Assembly (NCBI GenBank): GCA_012295275.1
Contig: CM022671.1
Coordinates: forward strand, 6,386,001-6,450,000
Reading direction: 5' to 3'
Length of the DNA: 64,000 bases
Source: Chrysomallon squamiferum
Taxonomy: Eukaryota > Animalia > Mollusca
Part shown: positions 5,685-62,440 of the stretch, piece after piece
Layout of the letters: every line of letters starts with the position of its first letter
Numbering within the stretch: the stretch's first letter is position 1
The notes under the pieces: model-generated
What the model saw: the letters and a program-made list of their open reading frames with translations, nothing else
What the model was told of the DNA's origin: nothing
Databases searched by the model: none
Made by a program: the position numbers and the translations under genes

Positions 5685-6230
5685 ACAACTATTTTTATCT
5701 ATAAAACTTACTGTTATTTTATTATTTATTTATCTATTTATTCTGAAACAGAGAGCATTTATGAATTATATCTTTAATATTTGTGTTCGCTGTCTCTGCT
5801 ATGTTCAGTCATTCTATCTTTAAGTAATTCAAAAGTTTATTTATTTGTCTGTTTATTACTGTGTAATTCATGACATTTACGGATACTATTTTTATGAATA
5901 ATAATAATAATAATAATAATGAAAAATTAGTAATTATAGAGATTAATTAAAATAACAAAATCTGGCATACTTGTTAAAAAAACAACAAAAAACAAATGTT
6001 AAGGTGAAGATTTCTTTCCTTTCGAGTTAGCTCCCTCTATGAAGTGCGTTATGATTTCCTCCCATTTTCACATTCCATTACAGTCATCAACTTACGACCA
6101 GGTTACGTTCCAACTATTTAGTCGTAAGTTGGATATCTGTTATTTGTATGCATGTAATCACGTTATCTCAACCTTAAGTCATCCATGTTTTTTGTTTTTT
6201 AGTAAACCCTTTAATTGGTTTAAATCAACG

Positions 6231-6968
6231 ATGAGAGTCGTGCTGGTTCTAGCAGTTGTCGTCGCTATAGCTGTCACAAACAGTGATGCTGGTTGGAGAT
6301 TACGTCGTGCATGGCGCAGAGCCAAACCTTACGTTATTGAAGCAGCCAAGCAGATCCTCTTTAAAATTATTGGAAAAAGAAGTAATAAACAAGTTTTAAT
6401 TAGTGAATATAAACTCAGACTACAAAAATAAATACTACTACAACAACAGCTACTACTACTAGAATAATAATCAAAAAAAAAGTTGTGGATACGATTTGCA
6501 AATGACACCAGTAAAACGCACAATCGAAGACTAGGCACCTACATCACGTGCATATTAAATTACATTTTAAAAAGATAACAAAAAGCATCGCAGTATTTAT
6601 TTATTTATTTACTTAATTATGTATTTATTTATTATTATTATTTTTTTATTTTTTATTTTATAATTATTATTATTATTTTTTTGCTTTGTAGGTGTGAATG
6701 AAATTGATGCGAACAATGACGGTGTGATAGACAAAGACGAAATCGAGGCTATTCTAAGTAGCCGAGAAGCAGACGAACTTCTGGAGTTTGTTGATCGTGA
6801 TGGTAAAGATTAATTTTTTAATAAAATTTTTAATTATTATTATTATTATTTTTTTTTAGTTAGTTAGTTTGTGTGTTTTTTTTTTTTTTTAAATATTTGT
6901 TTGTTTGTGTTTATATGTGTACATGGACATGGATTAATTTTAAAGTACTTCCAAGTACACACACACAC

Positions 6969-7010
<42 letters not shown>

Positions 7011-7139
7011 GAATTTGAAAATGTTTGGTGGATACATTTAGTAATTTCTCTAATTTTGTTTACTAATTTACGTGTAGCTGACGAGATTGTCACCAAGGAA
7101 GAACTGCAGCAAATCCTCGATGAATTAGAACATCAATAG
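6231..7139 (+). CDS. Copy 2: precursor, 107 aa; join(6231..6381,6692..6802,7078..7139); predicted mature peptide GWRLRRAWRRAKPYVIEAAKQILFKII-amide
   Basis: Signal MRVVLVLAVVVAIAVTNSDA, then peptide, GKR, and SVNEIDANNDGVIDKDEIEAILSSREADELLEFVDRDADEIVTKEELQQILDELEHQ*. Splice sites are canonical. 3'UTR exon from 7390, AATAAA at 7454. Confidence 0.92.
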
Positions 7140-9859
7140 TTGTAAGTTTGTAATAAAATACGTTCAAATATAAATTAATCTTATAATTATATTAATAACT
7201 AAGTAAACTGTTTAGCTGCAAAATATCTATTAAAAATAGACGTTTGTAAGCATATATAAATATGAATTTTAATGTCATGTTTATAACCGATGCACTAAAT
7301 ATATTTATGAATTCCTGTTAAATATTTAAATCACATTACAAACAGAAATCTGAACACAGAAAGTCAATACACTATTTTCTCTGTTTCAGACTCACCCAAG
7401 TTTGACCAGCAAAATGTCCAAACAGAAGACGGAGATGTGAACACATTGAAAACAATAAAGATGAAACCTCTCTAAAATTCAATTTTAAGCTTTTGTTTCA
7501 TCTTATTTTATTTTATTTTAAATATTTATTTAATTTATTATTATTACTATTATTATTATTATTATTATTATTATTTTATCAATACTCATGTCGGTTAATA
7601 AAGTTAACAGCTGGTGCGTTTGTGTAATAGAAATACATTTTCAAGTGGAGTAGTTGATAAATATTTTAAATAATAAACAAACAAACAAACAAATACATAA
7701 TAAATAAACACATTAAAAAAAAAAAAAAAAAAAAAAAATAAATAAATAACCAAACGAAGAAAAAGAAAGAAAGAAAGAAAGAAACCATTAAATAATAAAT
7801 ACAAAAAATAAACAAACAAACGAGGTAACATGAAGATGAAAAGATTTTGTAGAAATTAACTTAAATTCGATCAAACTAATCTGAAAAAGTATACAGAACA
7901 GTTTACACAAGTTCAGCTAAGAAACTGGTGTAAGAGAGAATCATTTCACAACTTAGTCTGTTTACCAAGAACCATAACTCATGCCATTCCGTATAATTGG
8001 ACCAATTGTCTTTGCACGTAGATTTGAGATGGCCAAAATAATCAAGTTTATAGTGACTTGATAAACACATTGAGGTTGATTAGACATTGCTTTTAGTGGA
8101 CGAAAACTAAAAATCGTAAATTTTGTTGATATTTAAATTTTAGAATCTGACGTTTTGATACAATATTTGTAATGTATTTAATATGTTATTGGGAAAAGTG
8201 ATGCACAAATCCTCTTTCCACCTTATTTTGGAAAAAACTGTCATCCTTGTTTTCTCTCTGTGCTTTAACATCACCATCTTTTACTGTCTTCTTTTCTTTC
8301 GTTTCAAAGATGCTGGCTTTTTGTAGCATTTGTGGACGCTATTTACCAATATAGTACACAGACACATTTGTAAATTTTATATAAACTGTCGTATGAAGAG
8401 GAAAGTATGTCCCATGATCTTTCATACACCAGTCGCGTTGGCCTGGTTCAGATGGGAAGAAAAGGACAATGATAATCACGTCCACTGGAGAGGGTCGATT
8501 AACTGTGCAAAAATTTCATTTCAGTTTGTATACCATGACAACTCGCCCATTCAAACTTTAATACATCAAATTTGATTACAAAATGGGTCATTTATTACTA
8601 CTACTACAATTTCTATTATTAATATTAATATTAATATTATTATTATCATCAGGTAATGAAAACAAAAATTAACATTTTTTTTTGTAAAATTCGAGGCGTT
8701 CCTGGATGTATTTTAAGAGGATTTAACTCTAGACGAACCTGCTCAGATCATACCAGAATACTAGCGTTTGTTTGACAGGTAAATTTCTGTAAGTTATATT
8801 CATAAGACAAACACTTATGTGATTAACAGATAAAATTTGAGTAAGAATTTATATTAGTTTTTTTATTTTATAAAACAACTAAACTCAACAACTTACAGCT
8901 TAGGTTCTCAATCTGCAGAAATAAACTTTTGTTCCTAGTTATCCCCCCTCTCGAGAATTGACCATTGCTGGTTTTATTGTTTGTCATCATGTGGTTATAA
9001 CAGATTGTTAATATTTTTATTTTATAAAACATACGTAAAACCAGTTCCATATTTAACCACAAACCATACTAGCTTCAGCTCATCCCCCCCGCAAAAAACA
9101 ACAAAAAAACAACAAAACAAAACAGCAACAACAAAACAACAAAAAGAGTAAAAACAAGACGAAATTCAATTCACTTTTGACAACTAGAATTAGTACCTGC
9201 ATAGCGTATTTCTCAAAACAAAGTACTCAAGTTGTAAAGAACTGAGGTGTGAAATTTGAGATCGCTGTTTTACATACGAAATATAATTCTAATTAAACTA
9301 GGAACAACAATAAAAATAATATTTAAATTTAAATTTAAGTGTGAAATTTGGGGACAATAATAACCACAACAAAATTTAAATTGTACTGCACTGAATGTGT
9401 TTTTTTTTTTGTTTTTTTTTTTTAGTCTGTTCAAACGTAAATTAATCATTAGTCATTTAAATACCTTCTTCTCCTACTTAGTTTTAAGAACGTTTGAAAA
9501 CATTTTACTCTAATTTAATACAAGAAATTATTTTACATTTCAATCTTTAATTGAGAAAGATAAAGTTTTTTAAAAAAATGATCATTTCTGGTTTTATTCT
9601 TTGACATCTTATGGCGTTTACAGATTGTTAATGTTGTTCTACTTCTAACAAAAATCAGCAGAATAATCGATAAACTGTCACGTGTGTGAACAAAAAACAA
9701 AAAACATTAGCATCACGAATCAATCTAATTGTGTTACATCCTGGATGAATAGTCAGTCATGCTAAAAGAATACAAAAATCGTGTCTGCACCGTGCCTAAA
9801 CTGCACATGTGTCCAGGACGTAACAGATAATTAACACAACATTATTTAAACAAATTATG

Positions 9860-17295: not shown

Positions 17296-18079
17296 ATGAG
17301 ACTCGTGTTGGTTCTAGCAGTTGTCGTCGCTGTAGCTGTCACAAACAGTGATGCTTGGAGATTACGTCGTGCATGGCGCAGAGTTGTTCGTTACATTTTG
17401 AAACCACGGATCCATTACTACCCTTGGACATATATTCCTGCTGGAAAAAGAAGTATAAACAAGTTTTATATAGTGAATATAAACATCGAAAAACAACAAC
17501 AAGTACTACTGCTACTGCAACTACTACTACTTCAACATCTATTAATACAACTACAACAAACAACAAAAGTTACTGCTAGAATAATAATAAATCGTTTTAA
17601 TTTGGTATTTTTATTATTATTATTAAATGGCGTATGTATTATTATTATTATTATTATTTTTATTATTTTATTATTTTTATTATTTTTTTATTTTATTTTA
17701 CTTTATTTATTTTTAATTTTTATTATTATTATTGTTATTATTATTATTTATTATTTTTAATTTTTTTTAATTTTTTTTAGGTGTGGATGAAATTGATGTG
17801 AACAATGACGGTGTGATAGACAAAGACGAAATCGAGGCTATTCTAAGTAGTCGAGAAGCAGACGAACTTCTGCAGTTTGCTGATCGTGATGGTGAAGATT
17901 TATTATTTTATTTTCATTTTTATTTATATTTTATTTTTATTTATATTTACATACATACATATATATGATGGATACATTTTTTAAATTCTCTAATTTTGTT
18001 TTCTAATTTACGTGTAGCTGACGAGATTGTCACCAAGGAAGAATTGCAGAAAATCCTCGATGAATTAGAACATCAATAG
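17296..18079 (+). CDS. Copy 4: precursor, 109 aa; join(17296..17452,17781..17891,18018..18079); predicted mature peptide WRLRRAWRRVVRYILKPRIHYYPWTYIPA-amide
   Basis: MRLVLVLAVVVAVAVTNSDA / peptide / GKR / SVDEIDVNNDGVIDKDEIEAILSSREADELLQFADRDADEIVTKEELQKILDELEHQ*. The first coding donor is the weaker GTATAA. 3'UTR exon from 18362, AATAAA at 18426. Confidence 0.9.
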
Positions 18080-20537: not shown

Positions 20538-20587
20538 CTAAACCCTTTTAGTTACAAAGTGATTTATTTTATTTATTTATTTATCAC

Positions 20588-21246
20588 TGAGACGTCGTTC
20601 TAGTTTTGTTGTCGGAGAATCAAACCAGTGATGCGTTATTAGAGTCGTGGCATCAACTCAAACCTTTCGTTATTAAAGCAGGCATCCAATACCCAGTTTC
20701 GGTTGTTGGAAAAAGAAGTAATAAACACGTTTTAAAATGTACTGAAAATAAACGACATCAAAATCAACAAAAACAAGTATTATTAATACAACAACAACTA
20801 GTATTACTACAATAATAATAATTATGTTTTAATTTTGTAAGATCTCTGCATACGATTTGAAAATGACACCAATAAAATCCACAATCGAAGATTACAGGGA
20901 CACACATGTGCATATTAAATAACATTTTAAAAAACAACATATTTATTTTTTTTTTTTTTTTTTTTAGGTATGGATGAAATTGATGTGAACAATGACGGTG
21001 TGATAGACAAAGACGAAATCGAGGCTATTCTAAGTAGTCGACAAGCAGACGAACTTCTGCAGTTTGCTGATCGTGATGGTGAAGATTTATTTTTTTGTTT
21101 TGTTTTGTTTTATTTCATTTTGTTAGTTAATAAGATGTCTGTTTAATTAATTATTTTTCTGTGTTTGTATATAACCACTCGTACATTTTTATTGTTTCAT
21201 TTTAAAGAGCTTTCAAGTACAATGTATCCACACACACACACACACA

Positions 21247-21285
<39 letters not shown>

Positions 21286-21456
21286 ATAGAGAGATAAACA
21301 CACAGAGAGAGAGCACATACACACATATTTAACTTGAAAATATTTGATGATACTGTTATAATTTCTCTAACATTGTTTATTAATTTACGTGTAGCTGATG
21401 AGATTGTCACCACGGAAGAACTACAGGAAACCCTCGATGAATTCAAACATCAATAG
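20588..21456 (+). pseudogene. Copy 5: signal-peptide region disrupted (no ATG, indels); EF-hand exons 20968..21078 and 21395..21456 intact
   Basis: ctgagacgtcgttctagttttgttgtcgg is a damaged version of atgagagtcgtgctggttctagcagttgtcg. It is followed by SDA-LLESWHQLKPFVIKAGIQYPVSVV-GKR with a donor at 20718, then SMDEIDVNNDGVIDKDE...DRD-ADEIVTTEELQETLDEFKHQ*. The damage could be an assembly error. Confidence 0.7.
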
Positions 21457-25676: not shown

Positions 25677-26095
25677 GAGTACACAAATAACAGAACTTAC
25701 ACAACTAACAAGACGTACACAAATAACAAGACTTACACAAATAACAGAACTTACACAAATAACAAGACTTACACACGTTACAGAACTTAGACAAATAACA
25801 AGACTTTACACAAATAACAGAACTTACACAAATAACAAGACTTACACATGTTACAGAACTTAGACAAACAACAAGACTTACACAAATAACAGAACTTACA
25901 CAAATAACAAGACTTACACACGTTACAGAACTTAGACAAATAACAAGACTTACACATGTTACAGAACTTAGACAAACAACAAGACTTACACAAATAACAG
26001 AACTTACACAAATAACAAGACTTACACACGTTACAGAACTTAGACAAATAACAAGACTTACACAACTAACAGGACGTACACAAATAGCAAGACTC
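25677..26095. repeat. 18-bp minisatellite (acacaaataacaagactt / acacaaataacagaactt variants)
   Basis: About 23 directly visible units with higher-order alternation of variants. Confidence 0.95.
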
Positions 26096-30755: not shown

Positions 30756-31212
30756 ACAACTTTTTTAATATAAAAAGCTTATTATTAATTAATTAATTTA
30801 TTTATTTATTTATTTATTTAATTATTTAAAGTAATTCATGAAATATACGGATACTATTTATTCTGAATAATAAAAATAAAAGAGTAGTAATATTAGAGAT
30901 TAATTAAAATACCAAATCTGACTTACTTGTTAAAAAAAAAAAAAAAACCACGTAAAGATGAAGACGTTTTTCCTTCCGAGTGAAATCCCTTTATGAAGTG
31001 CACTACGACTTTCTCCAGTTTTCATATTGCATTACAGTCATCAGTTTACGATCGCGTTCCGTTCCGATTAATTGATCGTAAGTCGTATATCTATTATCCG
31101 TGTGTATATTATCACGTTATCTCAACCTTAAGTCATCCATATTTGTTTGTTCTTGCTGGCTTTTTTTTTTATTTTTTTTTTTAGTAAACGCTTTTATTGG
31201 TTTAGATCAAAG

Positions 31213-32101
31213 ATGAGAGTCGTGCTGGTTCTAGCAGTTGTCGTCGCTGTAGCTGTCACTAACAGTGATGCTTGAAGATTACGTCGCTTGTGAGTCAAAC
31301 GCACGGCTATTAAAACAGGCGCAATTCAAGCTATTGGAAAAAGAAGCACTAAACAAGTTTTAAGTAATGAATACGAGCATCAACAAGTACTGCCACTACT
31401 GCTACTACAACTACTACCACATACATATCTAGTACTACTACTACTACAACAACAAACTAGAATAAGAATAATAATTCGTTTCAATTTTGTAAAAATAAAA
31501 AAATGTGGATACGATTTGCAAATGACACCAGTACAATGCTCATTCGAAGACTAGGCACTTTTACATGACGTGTATATTAAATTACATTTTATAAAAATAA
31601 CGAACACTAAAGTAGGGATTTCATTTTATTTATAATTTCTTTTTTGTGTCTGTGTAGGTGTGAATGAAATTGATGTGAACAATGACGGTGTGGTAGACCA
31701 AGACGAAATCGAGGCTATTCTAAGTAGCCGAGAAGCAGACGAACTTCTGGAGTTTGTTGATCGTGATGGTGAAGATTTATTATTTTATTTTGTTTTTATT
31801 ATTTTGTTTTTTTTTTATTTTAATTTTAGTTAATTAGTTAGTTAGTTTGTTAGCTTGTTTGTTTATTTCTTTAAGTCTTTGTTTGTCTGTGTATGTATGT
31901 GTACACTAGTACACTCATATGGATTCATTTCAAAGTACAGTACACACACACACACACACATATATAAAATCTGAACTGGAAAATGTTTGATGGATACATT
32001 TTATAAATGCTCTCACTTTGTTTTTTAATTTACTTGTAGCTGACAAGACCGTCACCATGGAAGAATTACATCAAACTCACGATGAATTCAAACATGAGTA
32101 G
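31213..32101 (+). pseudogene. Copy 7: two in-frame TGA codons in the peptide and a GT>GC donor; exons 31213..31345, 31658..31768, 32040..32101
   Basis: MRVVLVLAVVVAVAVTNSDA*RLRRL*VKRTAIKTGAIQAIGKR, with TGA at 31273 and 31291 and donor A|gcacta at 31346. The last exon has drifted to ADKTVTMEELHQTHDEFKHE*. Confidence 0.85.
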
Positions 32102-35016: not shown

Positions 35017-35685
35017 GCTAGCTAGCTAGCTAGCTATCTATCTATCTATAAAAATGAAGAAGTAAGAAAAGAGTATAATAAATGAAAATACATTTTATAT
35101 ATCATGTAAATAGAATGGCGAAAAAATAAAAAATAAAAAATAATAATAATAATAATCATAATAATAATAATAAATTAATAAATAAATAAATAAACAAATA
35201 AATAATAATTAAATAAACAAACAAACAAACATTATAAATAAATAAATAATGTTTGATTTAATAATACAAACATACATATAAAATCTACGTATATCGATCG
35301 ATCGATCTTTCTGTCGATCTATTAAACAGAAATCTATTTCCAAGACACATTATACATTCTCTGTTATTAAATTACTGTTCGAATACATTCTGTTATTAGA
35401 TAACTGTGCAGTTTACTATAGAGCAATTATCCAGTGCTGTTTTAATAAAACGATCAACTGATTTCCCATCATTTACAAACATGGCTGAAACTGTCAGCGG
35501 AATGGAAGCAATTTTTTTTGGCATACACACATTTGTACTTCCTCTTTCTGCGTAGAAGTTGTTTAAATAAAAGAAATCAGTTGCTGATCAATATGTGTTA
35601 CAGCGGACTGTAAAATTACAAAAAAAAAATTGTATCAGGAGAAAGTCGTCCATCAAAGTTTTTTGTTTAATAACCAGTCAGTGAT

Positions 35686-35970
35686 TTACACAAATACAAA
35701 GGACATACACAAATAACAGGACTTACACAAATAACAGGACGTATACAAATAACAGGATTTACACAAAAAACAGGACGTACACAAATAACAGGACTTGCAC
35801 ATATAACAGGACTTACACAAATAACAGCATGTACACAAATAACAGGACTTGCACAAATAACAGGACTTATGTACAAAATAACAGGATTTACACAAATAAC
35901 AGGACATACACAAATAACAGGACTTGCACATATAACAGGATATACACAAATTACAGGACTTACACAAATA
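35686..35970. repeat. 18-bp minisatellite (acacaaataacaggactt), paralogous to 25677-26095
   Basis: About 15 visible units, with the same left flank (ccatcaaagttt..gtttaataa..cagtca) as the 25.7 kb array. Confidence 0.95.
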
Positions 35971-37410
35971 ATATATATATATATATATAAAATAAATGTA
36001 ACTGTGTTGAAGTAACACCATTCTGTACACTGAGACATACAGAAAAACAGGTAGACAGAACTATACTTAGAACTACATTTGTATGTGTGTGTATATAAAC
36101 ATATATACATATATATATACATACATATACACACACACACACACACATATAAACAAGCACATACAACAACATACACTGCTTATATACAGATACAACATAT
36201 CAATAGAAAAACATTACACACACACTACACACACACACAAATGCATTTAGCTCTATTTATGCCACATCAAATTAAACTGTGGTAAACCGTGGTCCACAAA
36301 CCTTTGTTAGCGCTGTCCTTTTTGTCCAGTGACCATTGTTAGCATTGTCCAGATTCTCCCTTGACCTCTCATAGCAGTGTCTGTTTCGTCCACAGAGGTT
36401 TTAGGTTGATGTTTGTTAATCTAGTTAGAGAACTACTTACCATGTCCACATAAAACTCTGTCAAATACACTGGTCATTTCACCATTTTTTTGTTTTTATC
36501 ATTACAGTATTTTTTATTTCCTGTTGTCATAAAGGATAATTATAATGTTTCATTACATCAGTGCTACACAAAATAATTACTTTGTGTAATATTATATCGA
36601 TGTAACATATGATAATTATATTGTCTTGTATTCTATATAACACAAAATAATTACTTTGTGTAATATTATATCGATGTAACACATAATAATTATGTGTAGA
36701 ATTATTTCAGTTTGCATGGAAATTTTATTGGATTGGATATTAAGTACTGTATAAAAAGAATGTCTTTTAAGTTAAAATAATCTTTATTCTTCTTATTCTT
36801 TTTTTTTTTTTTTTTTGAATATGTTTGATCTATATGTATATATGTGGGCATGTGTGTATATATGTGTGTATGTGTGGTAGTATGTGTATTTATTATTTCG
36901 AGCTGTCGAGAGAATGAATATACAGTATAAACATAGAAAACTGATTAAATGATAATGAATGAACAAAGCTAATGAATGAATATTTAAACAACAAGTTTTA
37001 ACTGAAATCGGCAGGCCCCGGTATTCATGAATAAATTAGCGACTGAATAAATAAATGTTGACGAACACACAAACATGTGTTTCTCTGTTTTATGCAGCCA
37101 TGTGAGAATCTGTCTATCTATCTGATTTGCAAGTTTGTCCATCCTGGCTTAGGATTGGTATTTTACACATTCTGAGAACCATTAGAAATTACAGAGACTC
37201 TTGGATTAATCTGCATTATTTTTCTGGATTCATCCAGATCAGTGTCTTTGAAAAATAATTATCATTTTTACATCCTATCACAGATACATGTGCGTCTCAG
37301 TCGTACACTCTAACCACTAGACCACAGGCTGTCGCAGACAATGGATAAATATTTTATTTAATAATATACTCTATATAGCATCATAATTAATTATTGTTAA
37401 TGGCCGTGGT

Positions 37411-39564: not shown

Positions 39565-40204
39565 TTGTGCTATCCTTTCACATATTCTCATCAATGACAT
39601 CTAAATCTAAAAATCTATTAAAATCTATTTAGTAACATACTGTGTTGTTTACCTTCACTGCCATCAAACTAAACTCTAATATTAATCATAAACAAACAAA
39701 AACGAATTTAGTCTTTATTTATATAACTACACATCTAAATATTTATTACAGTTTATGTTTTTAATCATATATTCATATTTTCGCAATATATATTATAATA
39801 TTTATTTTCATTATTTATTTATACATGTATATATTCAAATATTTGCTCCTAAATTTAATCACACCAATAATGAGATAATCCAAAATATTTTTAATCAATC
39901 ATTATTCAGCTTCTGTTTATTTTATTTTATTTTTTTTTCAATTTTATTTTTGTTTGTTTATATTTTTTACAAAACAAAGTAAACACGTGAACTAAAAAAA
40001 ATGTTATTTATATTGATTTCACATGCAACATGTAACATGTGCTAACAACAGCTGTGACTACAACGAAGGCAACAAACGTGCTGACAAGGGCTACTCCAAC
40101 CACAACATTGGGAAATCAATTTAAACTTGAAACTGCTTATACAGAATACTGTAACTGATTGGTCACTGGAAATCTTTTATATTCTACTGTCAGACAGCAC
40201 GCAC

Positions 40205-40945
40205 CACTGATCTGTATTAGAGTGTAACTGTTAACAGCAAGATTTCTTTTACCATTTAATGATCTGTATTCTGTATTAGAGTGTAACTGTTAACAGCAAG
40301 ATTTCTTTTACATTTAATACAACACATACATCAGTATTCTGTAGTAGAGTGTAACAGTTAACAGCGAGATTTCTTTTACATTCACTATTTTACAGTTAAT
40401 ACAACACATTAATACAACACACTTCACTGTTCTGTAGTAGAGTGTAGCTGTTAACAGGGAGATTTCTTTTATGTTTAATACGCACACATCACTGTTCTGT
40501 AGTAGAATGTAACTGTTAGCAGCGAGATTTCTTTTACAATCACTATTTTACATTTAACACAACACTCACATCACTGTTCTGTAGTAGAGTGTAACTGATT
40601 ACAACAAGGTTTCTTTTACATTCACTATTTTGACATTTGGTACAACACTCATACCACTGTTCTATATTAGAGTGTAACTGTTAACAGCGAGATTTCTTTT
40701 ACATTCACTATTTTACATTTAATACAACACACATCACTGTTCTGTAGTAGAGTGTAACTGATTACAACAAGATTTCTTTTACATTCACTATTTTACATTT
40801 AATACGCACACATCACTGTTCTGTATTAGAGTGTAACCGTTAACAGCGAGATTTCTTTTACATTCACTATTTTACATTTAATACAACACACATCACTTTT
40901 ATATACTAGTGTGCAACTGATTACAACAAGATTTATTTTACATTC
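40205..40945. repeat. Minisatellite with ~60-80 bp unit (catcactgttctgtagtagagtgtaactgttaacagcgagatttcttttacattcactattttacatttaatacaacac)
   Basis: About 10 contiguous imperfect copies with no unique spacers. Confidence 0.92.
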
Positions 40946-40974
40946 ACCTTCCTATAGATAAAACAAAATATACC

Positions 40975-41260
40975 AGCACATCATAATATTTTTTTACCGA
41001 TTACAGCAAGGGATCTTTTTTTTATTATTAACCTTCTTGTAGATAGGACAACACATTCAACTACTTGATAATGCACTGTAACATACTGCAGCAAATTCGA
41101 TTTTATATTAAACATTTTATGGACGGCGTAATGCATAATACCACTTTCTGACACGACCAAACACATCACAAAGCGATAAATTAATTATGTGGTCGTTTCG
41201 AGATATAGCTCATGTCACTGAGGAGAGTGGATCCCTCGACCCTTCACTTACACACGTCGT
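40975..41260 (-). mobile_element. Degraded SINE of the same family (further remnants at ~43860-44000, ~51370-51580, ~61780-61950)
   Basis: ccgattacagcaagggatctttt...gataggacaacacat and gagatatagctca..gtcactgaggagagtggatcc resemble the recalled SINE consensus; 43930 has gagagaaaggaaacccactgcc...attagcagcaa. Not verified by search. Confidence 0.5.
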
Positions 41261-42761: not shown

Positions 42762-43784
42762 ATGAGTGTGCAGCCGACGTCCATGTGGTCATGTTTCTTC
42801 TACGTCATCGCCAACATCGCTGGCCTCGTTCTGTACTGGCTGTATGAGCAGGAGCGGATAAAGAAGTCGAGACGAAGCTCGGACATCAGCAGCAGCAGCA
42901 CCGACTTCACCGACGTGGAGATGAAGAAGATCATTCGATACAAACACACGCCGTCCCTCCTCGCTTTTCTGGGAATTCAGTCGCACCACACGTTCTTCGC
43001 TTTTGACGACCACTTCAACACTTTCGACGAAGTCAGCCGAGCTTGCAAGCGAGCTGGGCTCGAGAAATGTGGTCTCATCATCGGCGTGGATTTCAGCGCG
43101 AGCAACGAGTGGCAGGGAAGGAAGACGTTTTCGGGACAGAATCTTCACAAAGTCGTAGCCGGGAGGATCTACAACCCGTACCAGAAGGTCATAGCGATTA
43201 TAGGGAAGACTCTGGAGCCCTTCGACGACGACAACTTAATCCCGGCGTTCGGCTTCGGTGACAGCTCCACTCTCGGATCTGACGTGTTTTCGTTTCTGTC
43301 AAACGGGAGAATGTGTTCTGGATTTTCCGAGGTGCTCGACCGCTACAGCGACATCGCCACCAGAGTCAAACTAGGCGGACCGACAAACTTCGCCCCCGTG
43401 ATTTACAAAGCCGTGGAAATCGTGAAACGGTTGAAGAAGTACCACATTCTGATTATCATCGCCGACGGACAAGTGAACGAAGAGCAGACGACCATCGACG
43501 CCATTGTTGAAGCGTCCAACCATCCTCTCAGTATCATCGTCGTGGGTGTTGGTGACGGACCATGGGACGTGATGGAGGATTTCGATAACTGTTTGCCGCA
43601 GAGGAAGTTCGATAACTTTCAGTTCGTTAATTTCCACGCGGTCACGTCGAAAGCGAGGAATCCACAAACAACGTTTGCTCTCCATGCCCTCATGGAGATC
43701 CCAGATCAGTACAAAACAATTAAAGCTTTAGGCTACCTCAACTATGACGACAGCGTCAGTGACAGCTTACAAAGCTTCGACTGA
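42762..43784 (+). CDS. Copine-family vWA-domain protein (RGLG-like vWA) with an N-terminal transmembrane helix; no C2 or RING domain; single coding exon
   Basis: 340-aa ORF that is GC-rich relative to its flanks. Motifs: FNTFDEVSRACKRAGLE, LIIGVDFSASNEWQG (DxSxS MIDAS), NPYQKVIAIIGKTLEPFDDDNLIPAFGFGD, GPTNFAP, ILIIIADG, PLSIIVVGVGDGPW, RKFDNFQFV, ALMEIPDQY. Hydrophobic segment at residues ~9-29. An in-frame stop lies just upstream of the ATG and a splice acceptor at 42741. Confidence 0.93.
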   Translation: MSVQPTSMWSCFFYVIANIAGLVLYWLYEQERIKKSRRSSDISSSSTDFTDVEMKKIIRYKHTPSLLAFLGIQSHHTFFAFDDHFNTFDEVSRACKRAGLEKCGLIIGVDFSASNEWQGRKTFSGQNLHKVVAGRIYNPYQKVIAIIGKTLEPFDDDNLIPAFGFGDSSTLGSDVFSFLSNGRMCSGFSEVLDRYSDIATRVKLGGPTNFAPVIYKAVEIVKRLKKYHILIIIADGQVNEEQTTIDAIVEASNHPLSIIVVGVGDGPWDVMEDFDNCLPQRKFDNFQFVNFHAVTSKARNPQTTFALHALMEIPDQYKTIKALGYLNYDDSVSDSLQSFD

Positions 43785-44848: not shown

Positions 44849-45262
44849 AAAACATTTACAGGCTAATTTTTCACAATGAAACCTATACAAGCTAAATTTT
44901 CACAGTGAAACATTTACAAGCTAAATTTTCACACTGAAACATTTACAGGCTAAATTTTCACAATAAGACATTTAAGGCTAATTTTTCACAATAAAACATT
45001 TACAGGCTATTTTTTCACAATAAAACATTTACAGGCTATTTTTTCACAATAAAACATTTACAGGCTATTTTTTCACAATAAAACATTTACAGGCTAATTT
45101 TTCACAATGAAACATTTACAAGCTAATTTTTCACAATGAAACATTTACAAGCTATATTTTCACACTGAAATATTTACAAGCTATATTTCCACAATGGAAC
45201 ATTTGTAGGCTAATTTTTTCACTGTGAAACATTTACAGGCAAATATTTCACAGTGAAACACA
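44849..45262. repeat. 29-bp minisatellite (aaacatttacaggctatttttcacaat)
   Basis: About 14 contiguous copies; the period of 29 is visible at 45003/45032. Confidence 0.95.
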
Positions 45263-57072: not shown

Positions 57073-59018
57073 TGTATGTATGTATGTATGTATACAGTAT
57101 GTGTAATTTGTGTGGGGAGTGTGGGTGTATGTGTCTGTTACCTATATAACACCTGAATCTACTAAATGTTGTTTGATTACTATAACTGTGAGCGTTGTTT
57201 TTATCATTCTGTAGGTAAGTAAAACACCAACGAGAATCAAACGACATCTCACCTGCATTCTCGTTTTGACAACATCTACAGGTGTGTTTCCAAATACAGA
57301 GGCAGCACCCGCTATAGCACCAAAACAACCCGTAATCAGGGTGGGCACCCGGGCGTTCTTGTCCTCCCCCCGGTACCAGTCCTTCATGGTTTCCATGACG
57401 AAGAAGCGAATCGCCTGGTTGCTTCCTTGTTTGATGATGGTTGGAGTGAGACCCTGATACACTCCTCTCATACCTGAGTGAAAAAATTTATTTTGTTAAA
57501 AAATGTCCTCATTTAATCAAAAATGTATTAAAATTGTTTATAATTTTAAATTGTTTTTAATTATTATTATTTGAATAACAATGTATTAAAATTATTTTCT
57601 TCACTAGAATAATAATCTGTTAAAATTATTGATAAATGTAGAATTTGAAGAATGAAAAAAGTATTTAATAATATATAGAAATTCATTGTTGTTAGGCATT
57701 TAAATTAATTTATCAAATTCTGCTTAATATATATAATTGTGTGTGTGTGTGTGTGTGTATTTACATTTGTTTTGTTTTTTTAAATATTCTGGATAAAAAA
57801 AAAAAAAAAACCCCCAAAACACTGAAGAAGACAATAATGCTGACTGTTATAAATACAACAAGTATTCAGACTGATATGTGTCTAGGACAAAAAAAAAAAA
57901 AAAACGTTCATTACTTCAACTGAAACATCTAGCTGAACCTTTCACCTTCACTTGAACTATGACCTTAACCTCAACCTTGACCAAGATAAATTATTACATC
58001 TCCAACATTCTTTTTTCACCTGAATTTTGGTAAAAGTTACCTTCAAGGTTAATTGTTTTTTTACCTGTTTAAATGTTTTTAATGTACCTTGATCCTTGAC
58101 AATGCACTTAATTCCGTGAGCAAAACCTCGATATTGTGGATGAGCTGATGACTGGTCATGGATGAATTTGACCTTGACTGTCTCCATTGGGGTCACGGCA
58201 AAAATAGCCTCACAAATGCCAGCACCTAAAATAAAATTAAAAAATTAAGAAAAACAGAAACATTTTGAGTTTCAATGTAATACAAAATTTCTTAGTAATA
58301 TTTTTTAGTGTTACAAAGTTTTATTTTTTGAAATAAGTTATTAGAACTTGTGAATACTTTGTAACCACTATAACTGTGTATTACATTGTAAGAACATTTA
58401 AGTTATAACTATGTTATACACAGTATAATCAATTATTTCAAGAAATTCTTTCATACATTGAATTTACAATAAAATCTTAATGAAATAACTAATGAAACAC
58501 AACATGAACTGATTTATATAATTATATAACATAATAATGATATTAACATATTAGTAGCAGAAACAAACAATAGTAATGATAAATTGTATCAAAAGTGAAT
58601 TACAAGAAATAAAAAACACTTTCTTCTTAAAATATTAGTGTGAAATGTAACCAATGGACTGATAAACATCTTTCACAAAGACATTTAAAAACAAATTAAA
58701 TAACATTAATGTGATTATAATAATGATAAATTTTACTGATGATGAAAAATACATAATAAAAAAAAAAAAATTAATAATGTAAATTTAAATTGTGACACCT
58801 CATCGATACCTTTTGACTCAACGTCATTTAAATATTTTTTTTTTAATAATAATAGCAATAACAGTAATAATTAGAAATAGAACAAGCTATGTAAAAGAGA
58901 CATGAGAGTTATGTACAGACGAGAATACAGACCTAAACCACACAACAAGCGCTGCTGTGGTTTTAAAACACCAGTCTCGTCAACTACATTCTTTTTAAAC
59001 TCCTCAAACGCGCCAAAT
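56034..59018 (-). CDS. SLC25A1: Mitochondrial tricarboxylate (citrate) carrier, 3' part; complement(join(56034..56148,56569..56642,57253..57473,58088..58225,58933..59018)); 5' exons not found in the window
   Basis: Phase-consistent GT-AG exons give [53 protein letters not shown]...[28 protein letters not shown]...[79 protein letters not shown]. Carrier signatures PxExxK and PxDxxKxR and the citrate-carrier motif [10 protein letters not shown] are present. Confidence 0.96.
56710..57095. repeat. (TATG)n/(TA)n/(TG)n compound microsatellite in an SLC25A1 intron
   Basis: Directly visible; it is the source of the many spurious MYVC ORFs. Confidence 0.95.
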
Positions 59019-61919: not shown

Positions 61920-62440
61920 TCATGAGGATTGAACCTGTTACCCTTGTCATACCACTGACAAGATTTGAACTTGTAACCTTTCTCTCATTAGACCAATGTT
62001 GTAACCACTAACAAGGTTTGAGAAACTGTAACCTTTCATTCATTAGACCAATGTTGTAACCACTAACAAGGTTTGAAACTGTAACCTTTCACTCATTAGA
62101 CCAGTGCTGTAACCACTAACAAGGTTTGAAACTGTAACCTTTCATTCATTAGCCCAGTGTTGTAACCACTAACAAGGTTTGAAACTGTAACCTTTCACTC
62201 ATTAGACCAGTGTTGTAACCACTAACAAGGTTTGAAACTGTAACCTTTCATTCATTAAACCAATGTTGTAACCACTAACAAGGTTTGAAACTGTAACCTT
62301 TCATTCATCAGACCAATGTTGTAACCAGTAACAAGGTTTGAAACTGTAACCTTTCATTCATTAGACCAGTGTTGTAACCACTAACAAGGTTTGAAAATGT
62401 AACCTTTCATTCATTAGACCACTCTACCCACTGGACTGCT
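61920..62440 (-). repeat. 53-bp minisatellite derived from a tRNA-like SINE head
   Basis: About 8 copies with period 53 (62041/62094). The minus-strand unit is TAGTGGTTACAACACTGGTCTAATGAATGAAAGGTTACAGTTTCAAACCTTGT. Confidence 0.85.

Follow-up and report, generated by a model that had tools for sequence, protein, structure and literature searches.

Tandem genes of Chrysomallon squamiferum are predicted to join hypervariable cationic peptides to a shortened EF-hand tail

In Mytilida, mytimycin precursors consist of a signal peptide, a defence peptide, a dibasic site and an anionic tail with two EF-hand loops that is conserved across variants. The function of this EF-hand tail is stated to be unknown (PMC8004829). 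Myticalins and modiocalins, which are also bivalve peptides, are linear, cationic and hypervariable, and are followed by a Gly-dibasic site with predicted amidation and by an anionic C-terminal extension. The myticalin genes form a multigene family with pseudogenes in which a non-coding first exon is followed by a single coding exon that supplies signal, peptide and dibasic site; right after this site comes a phase-1 intron, and then the anionic extension (PMC5577615). The Equinin B precursor of the sea anemone Actinia equina likewise joins a signal, a cationic antimicrobial peptide and a pro-domain, and the closest protein is annotated with EF-hand sites (PMC11051070). Engineered fusions provide an artificial parallel, as an EF-hand protein, calmodulin, tames a helical cationic peptide until it is released by proteolysis; calmodulin fused to cecropin P1 suppresses the toxicity of the latter (PMC9475619). 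Processing of the secreted precursor nucleobindin-2/nesfatin also parts peptides from an EF-hand portion, and nesfatin-3, once released, differs from the precursor in how it binds metals (PMC10308643).

The window, which is the whole stretch of 64,000 nucleotides analysed here, contains seven tandem copies of a gene with a related layout between 2.3 and 32.1 kb. Five copies are intact and two are broken in exon 1. Copy g2 has three exons on the forward strand (6231-6381, 6692-6802 and 7078-7139) which were joined in silico to give a 107-aa open frame; both introns are GT-AG and in phase 1, and splicing is predicted from the sequence. The precursor begins with a 20-residue signal-like start, followed by a 27-residue peptide (+7), G-K-R and a 57-residue tail (-16), with 6291..7139 accounting for the mature peptide and the tail. 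K49-R50 (6375-6380) is followed by S, V, N, E and I and then by EF loop 1, which begins with D56 (6706). Intron 1 splits the Ser codon after K49-R50 and lies between the exon of the variable peptide and those of the tail, a position common to 7/7 copies. Upstream of the start codon, the putative leader intron has a donor-like motif in 5/6 and an AG acceptor in 5/6 aligned copies. AATAAA lies at +13 from the stop codon in 6/7 copies. The features of g2 and its paralogs are listed in the table.

Table. Features of copy g2 and of its paralogs (positions in the window)
Feature	Position	Strand	Remarks
Putative 5' leader intron	6124..6202	+	Predicted; implies a non-coding first exon upstream, myticalin-like
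Predicted signal peptide, residues 1-20	6231..6290	+	Met-Arg, hydrophobic core, small residues at -3/-1; judged by eye
Predicted mature peptide, 27 aa, likely amidated	6291..6371	+	Charge, hydrophobic moment, AlphaFold helix
G-K-R, EF loop 1 positions -8, -7, -6	6372..6380	+	Likely amide donor and dibasic convertase site
Phase-1 intron 1, one base past the Arg codon	6382..6691	+	GT..AG
EF1 short entering helix, positions -5 to -1	6692..6705	+	Ser/Asn -5, Glu -2, hydrophobic -4/-1
EF loop 1, canonical	6706..6741	+	D1, N/D3, D5, G6, I8, D9, E12
Inter-loop 17 residues: EF1 exit helix, Ser-Ser, EF2 entering helix	6742..6792	+	
EF loop 2, split at loop position 4 by phase-1 intron 6803-7077	6793..7103	+	
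EF2 exit helix and stop codon	7104..7139	+	AATAAA 13 bases past stop
Paralog g1, intact, 114 aa	2275..3265	+	Peptide region 35 aa (+4), Gln before KR
Paralog g3, intact, 107 aa	11950..12967	+	Peptide +5
Paralog g4, intact, 109 aa	17296..18079	+	Peptide +8, Pro/Tyr-rich second half, Pro at -10
Paralog g5, broken	20580..21456	+	No in-frame start, degraded signal region; tail exons open
Paralog g6, intact, 100 aa	27163..28089	+	Peptide 20 aa (+3)
Paralog g7, broken	31213..32101	+	Two TGA stops in peptide, GC donor; tail exons open

The g2 DNA that spans peptide, G-K-R and donor is identical, with no other letters, in contigs of runs X1 (6247-6588) and X3 (6237-6588), which represent the DNA of two studies, one of them possibly the source of the window itself. 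Contigs of X1, X2, X3 and X6 that match 6150-7250 and 31150-31800 with differing letters or with other joins in the peptide region were also found. They suggest further paralogs or alleles, and some of them are other copies in the window. A search of Rfam gave no matches.

The copies differ mainly in the peptide. Exon-1 products are 50-68% identical to that of g2, mostly by way of the signal, and exon-2 products are 78-89% identical; tails differ at 4-10% of bases between copies. The array is thus a tandem multigene family with a hypervariable peptide between conserved flanks. In broken copy g7 the TGA codons at 31273-31293 and 31346 both fall where g2 and g4 have Trp, and the GC donor is weak. 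A DNA contig of run X6 carries the same letters over this stretch, which makes an assembly error unlikely. In g4 (17296-17451) the first half of the peptide shares the Arg/Trp-rich sequence of g2 and the second half is unrelated and rich in Pro, Tyr and Trp, a pattern that suggests a swap or a frame change inside the peptide exon. The duplicated units are 3.3-6.6 kb long (window 1-33000) and include long non-coding flanks that are about 70-85% identical. Partial matches of the flank type occur near 9.2-10.1, 14.2-15.0 and 29.2-30.8 kb.

A signal-like start, a peptide, KR and an anionic tail occur in order in 5/5 intact copies, with Gly before KR in 4/5. The predicted peptides of these copies have 20-35 residues, a charge of +3 to +8, no Cys and a Trp near the start, as is common in helical antimicrobial peptides. 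The g2 peptide carries Trp at positions 2 and 8 and is predicted to form an amphipathic helix with a hydrophobic moment of 0.80; AlphaFold modelled the 30-residue peptide-GKR piece as a helix from residue 2 to 28 with a mean pLDDT of 83. It has no match in Pfam. Between g2 and g3, the sole pair that can be aligned without gaps in this region, pN is 0.35 and pS is 0.12. The peptide exon therefore appears, from these comparisons, to diversify while the tail stays nearly constant. Probably the products are membrane-active host-defence peptides under diversifying selection. A signalling, pheromonal or gamete-surface role is highly improbable, as each precursor holds a single cationic, amphipathic peptide of 20-35 residues and the copies share no conserved C-terminal motif, even though G-K-R is a neuropeptide processing signal too and one neuropeptide precursor of a snail, HCS2, reportedly contains an EF-hand region. 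HCS2 differs from the present genes, as does nucleobindin-2, in yielding signalling peptides and in having no hypervariable cationic cargo.

The loops of the tail were compared with 1110 EF loops from the best 150 of 1545 proteins found by a profile search, a background biased toward multi-EF proteins that were picked by this same profile, many of them bacterial-type by look and not calmodulins. Pfam EF-hand models match exon 2 with E values of 7.7e-6 to 1e-4, slightly under the curated cut-offs (EF1 scores 25.6 bits with the exon alone, against a cut-off of 25.9). In 5/5 intact copies EF1 has ligands at loop positions 1, 3, 5, 9 and 12, Gly at position 6 and a hydrophobic residue at position 8. 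EF2 has D1, D3, D5, T9 and E12, and position 6 is Glu or Asp, not Gly; Glu is found at this position in 5/1110 background loops and any residue other than Gly in 56/1110. Some Modiolus and Perna mytimycin tails likewise have no Gly6 in loop 2 (PMC8004829). The two loops of the present tail start 29 residues apart, a spacing of 29 or less being seen in 426/972 successive pairs of background loops. The tails of the intact copies have charges of -13 to -16 and consist of one EF pair with no Met and 1-3 aromatic residues. Position -4 is Val in 4/5 intact copies, compared with Phe in 741/1110 and Val in 21/1110 background loops. The intron between 6802 and 7078 interrupts loop 2 at position 4 in phase 1. 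Calmodulin genes have a phase-1 intron at the same position, and the match would point to an exon pair of the calmodulin family, cut short at helix E, as the origin of the tail; exon 2 (111 bases) would then be a shortened form of the calmodulin-family exon.

The loops could in principle be a functionless relic of such a donor exon pair, with any acidic string able to serve as well. This explanation is very unlikely. The tail is under only mildly purifying selection (mean pN/pS 0.72 over 10 non-independent pairs), g5 and g7 retain all ten ligand positions despite being broken, EF2 has lost Gly6 and a different residue stands at -4, where Phe is usual, all of which a relic would explain. Young duplication or gene conversion may also account for part of the constancy of the tail. 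Against a relic, the changes seen among the intact copies, at 19/57 positions of the tail, are mostly conservative and in no case remove a ligand oxygen; EF1 Gly6 and Ile8 are invariant, and the tail of broken g7 is the most divergent.

An earlier note on this DNA, made from the sequence alone, had remarked that only five residues separate KR from loop position 1, so that K and R sit at -7 and -6. This spacing is the same in 7/7 copies. A dibasic pair at -7/-6 is not rare in itself (44/1110 background loops). Mytimycins have 13-21 residues between the cut and loop 1, which makes the five-residue gap distinctive. The note had also placed the cut inside the entering helix of EF1. By counting on a calmodulin template this is correct, but as a mechanism it is disfavoured by the residue at -8, which is Gly in 6/7 copies (Gln in g1), and by the intron at the cut. 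Position -10 is Pro in g4, and the residues upstream of the cut are all encoded on the hypervariable exon. Only -4 (96%) and -1 (95%) are near-invariantly hydrophobic among the 1110 background loops, compared with 59% at -8 and 57% at -5. A full entering helix would have hydrophobic residues at -8, -5, -4 and -1, and the present copies have them at -4 and -1 only; 204/1110 background loops have a hydrophobic residue at neither -8 nor -5, and Gly or Pro occurs somewhere between -9 and -5 in 453/1110. After cleavage, -4 and -1 would both stay on the tail. The proposal that cleavage truncates helix E and so releases the peptide is poorly supported.

Just past the cut, the five intact copies have Ser or Asn at -5 with Glu at -2, and a combination of S, T, N or D at -5 with E at -2 is found in 18/1110 background loops. 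A start of the S/T/N/D type followed by Glu is the capping-box pattern of a helix N-cap. The pattern here fits a helix cap that begins just past the cut.

In its strongest form the idea of a built-in antidote holds that a Ca2+-loaded, calmodulin-like lobe grips the peptide specifically. The outer part of helix E would be prolonged or supplied by the peptide end and G-K-R, so that cleavage would destabilise the lobe and let the peptide go. The peptide could then fill the groove left by the missing helix-E turns. The constant position of KR at -7/-6 speaks for this model, as do a hydrophobic residue at -9 in 7/7 copies compared with 24% of background loops and the five-residue gap set against the 13-21 residues of mytimycins (six rows, counted by eye). 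Cleavage also alters the metal binding of the nucleobindin-2 EF-hand fragment (PMC10308643). Several observations oppose it. Gly stands at -8 in 6/7 copies and Pro at -10 in g4, and the residues upstream of KR come from the hypervariable exon. A calmodulin lobe has a hydrophobic pocket lined with Met and Phe, and calmodulin has two lobes; here there is one EF pair with no Met and 1-3 aromatic residues per tail. Spacing motifs of calmodulin targets are no commoner in the peptides than in shuffles, 33/35 tests giving p >0.15 and the two lowest p values being 0.04 and 0.05, uncorrected. The hydrophobic residue that ends the peptide is already usual for amidated peptides, and convertases bind extended substrates. 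This model is unlikely. Equally unlikely is a related reading in which the tail would be a natural calmodulin tag, a folded, promiscuous, Ca2+-loaded antidote whose helix-E gap is filled by the peptide helix and which is disarmed by a single convertase cut.

Structure prediction of a complex was used to ask whether the two parts might bind. The two exon pieces of the tail, two Ca2+ ions and the 30-residue peptide-GKR gave a score of 0.39, compared with 0.08 for the best of three controls, with the caveats that peptides lie outside the calibration, that the score may owe something to solved complexes of calmodulin with peptides and that the interface is not given. Individual runs scored 0.05, 0.39 and 0.40, with shared contacts of at least 40% and a partner pLDDT of at least 62. 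The mark set for such predictions was reached by 51/78 solved and 2/108 mismatched pairs; at scores of 0.60 or less it was reached by only 5/78 solved pairs, and all four mismatches that passed fall there. The result is weak evidence that makes binding slightly more likely, and it is equally compatible with pocket binding and with helix completion. It slightly favours the suggestion in the earlier note that the tail could hold its RRAWRR-type peptide; the single lobe, the lack of Met, Val at -4 and Glu in place of Gly6 in loop 2 speak against a calmodulin-type pocket.

The broader suggestion that the tail is a chaperone or antidote is plausible in a weaker form that needs no calmodulin-type pocket, which is doubtful. 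Peptides of +3 to +8 are opposed by tails of -13 to -16, and there are precedents. Nematode cecropin P4 is inhibited by its own acidic pro-region, which acts on other peptides as well (PMC2834666), and the fusion of calmodulin to cecropin P1 is a second example (PMC9475619). Our preferred reading, to which we give about even odds, is that the tail masks the peptide until the cut and that Ca2+ is a structural ion loaded throughout, not a switch. Under this reading the precursor would very probably be secreted, cleaved at KR, trimmed and amidated at Gly. EF1 would likely be Ca2+-bound from the ER onward, with EF2 weakly bound or unbound. The tethered tail would, on balance, hold the peptide by charge and through a shallow aliphatic groove that the one-turn helix E does not cover, and would do so without sequence specificity; a tail with two ions bound would still carry about -12 and could wrap the cationic helix. 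A convertase would cut the exposed KR and leave the EF1 loop and the -4/-1 anchors intact. Release would then come from loss of the tether, dilution and competition from anionic membranes. Because an acidic mask needs no EF-hand, the masking model explains retention of the loops incompletely.

Free Ca2+ is about 0.4 mM in the ER, about 0.1 mM in granules and 10 mM in seawater. By calculation, a site with a Kd of 10 uM or less would be more than 90% occupied at all stages from the ER to seawater, and a change of state is expected only for a weak site near 0.1-1 mM, for which EF2 is a possible candidate. With Ca2+ high at every stage of secretion, gating of convertase access by Ca2+, which the earlier note had offered as an alternative, is unlikely. 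Its other alternative, that the freed tail chelates the Ca2+ of seawater, fails on stoichiometry, as 100 uM tail would bind at most 2% of 10 mM Ca2+. This is just 0.3% of Ca2+ plus Mg2+, and the tail would already be loaded. The marine setting that the note had assumed is probably right, the host likely being a neomphaline vent snail.

An alternative is that the tail is mainly a sorting or packaging module, or a second secreted product. The acidic Ca2+-binding piece would aggregate the precursor into granules or act alone once released, and masking would be incidental. In favour of this role, oxygen-bearing side chains are retained at all ten ligand positions in 5/5 intact copies. AlphaFold modelled exon 2 alone as one helix (residues 14-35) between the loops, which would favour intermolecular pairing, but the model has low confidence and concerns a 36-aa fragment (pLDDT 69, pTM 0.29). 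EF-hand tails also stand behind unrelated cargoes, namely disulfide-bonded mytimycins, Equinin B and, reportedly, HCS2 neuropeptides, and some mytimycin peptides are listed as near-neutral, so that little charge masking would be needed (PMC8004829). Here, in contrast, a strongly cationic cargo is paired with a strongly anionic tail. We consider a purely sorting or independent role quite unlikely and retain masking by the tail as the preferred reading.

The locus resembles the described systems in parts but coincides with none of them. Mytimycin cargoes contain 10-14 Cys whereas the five predicted mature peptides here are Cys-free and so lack the Cys-rich character of that family, and the mytimycin loops are spaced 34-35 residues apart compared with 29 here. 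The excerpts on myticalins make no mention of an EF-hand, and myticalin peptides are mostly rich in Pro and Arg (PMC5577615). Protein searches returned no myticalin sequence, and the signal consensus published for myticalins looks unlike the present signal by eye. Equinin B differs in being a cnidarian precursor of about 147 aa, with two exons in the relative (PMC11051070). In the calmodulin fusions a whole two-lobe calmodulin is placed N-terminally in an artificial, cytosolic protein, whereas the present pair is shortened, Met-free and C-terminal.

Homologs were sought in several ways. The exon-2 frame gave no homolog among 14 candidates in longer proteins, and the exon-1 alignment gave none among 7997 candidates in proteins of at least 101 aa. 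HMMER returned 1545 matches from 1.84 billion representatives; the best 150 all have at least four EF stretches, and a two-EF relative would be hidden behind them. Sequence searches of the Atlas and the PDB found generic EF-hand proteins only. Such blank searches support novelty only weakly. The part of the literature that was searched describes no gastropod precursor in which a linear, probably amidated peptide is attached to a shortened EF pair, and the excerpts of PMC11871041, PMC3390580 and PMC7142155 hold nothing on this family. The layout is therefore known in kind from myticalins, mytimycins and Equinin B, and this combination is apparently undescribed.

The array offers a simple experimental panel, in which five linear, synthesisable peptides share one 57-residue Cys-free tail. 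With such a panel, masking by charge alone could be told apart from binding by a fold that depends on Ca2+. The family is also an apparently undescribed source of candidate salt-adapted antimicrobial peptides, from a lineage with members that depend on bacterial symbionts, provided that the host is placed correctly; two Peltospiridae snails carry endosymbionts (PMC7895826). If the tail were a natural calmodulin tag, the peptides might be of use in policing the snail's bacterial partners. Together with mytimycins and Equinin B, this would make EF-hand pro-domains a repeatedly evolved means of self-protection for the defence peptides of marine invertebrates.

Other features of the window were noted. 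A vWA protein of the copine/RGLG type (Pfam Copine, E 2e-63) is encoded by a long single open frame at 42765-43781. Among the best 120 of 4030 matches, the best named one is from Gigantopelta aegis (82%), followed among named gastropods by Haliotis (73%) and Patella (70%), which points to a neomphaline vent snail as the likely host. At 57145-58244 on the reverse strand lie exons of a gene for a mitochondrial carrier (Pfam Mito_carr), which by eye resembles a citrate carrier. Minisatellite-like arrays were found at 25680-26094, 35683-35971, 40180-41072, 44849-45260 and 61951-62432, the first two of which are related to each other.
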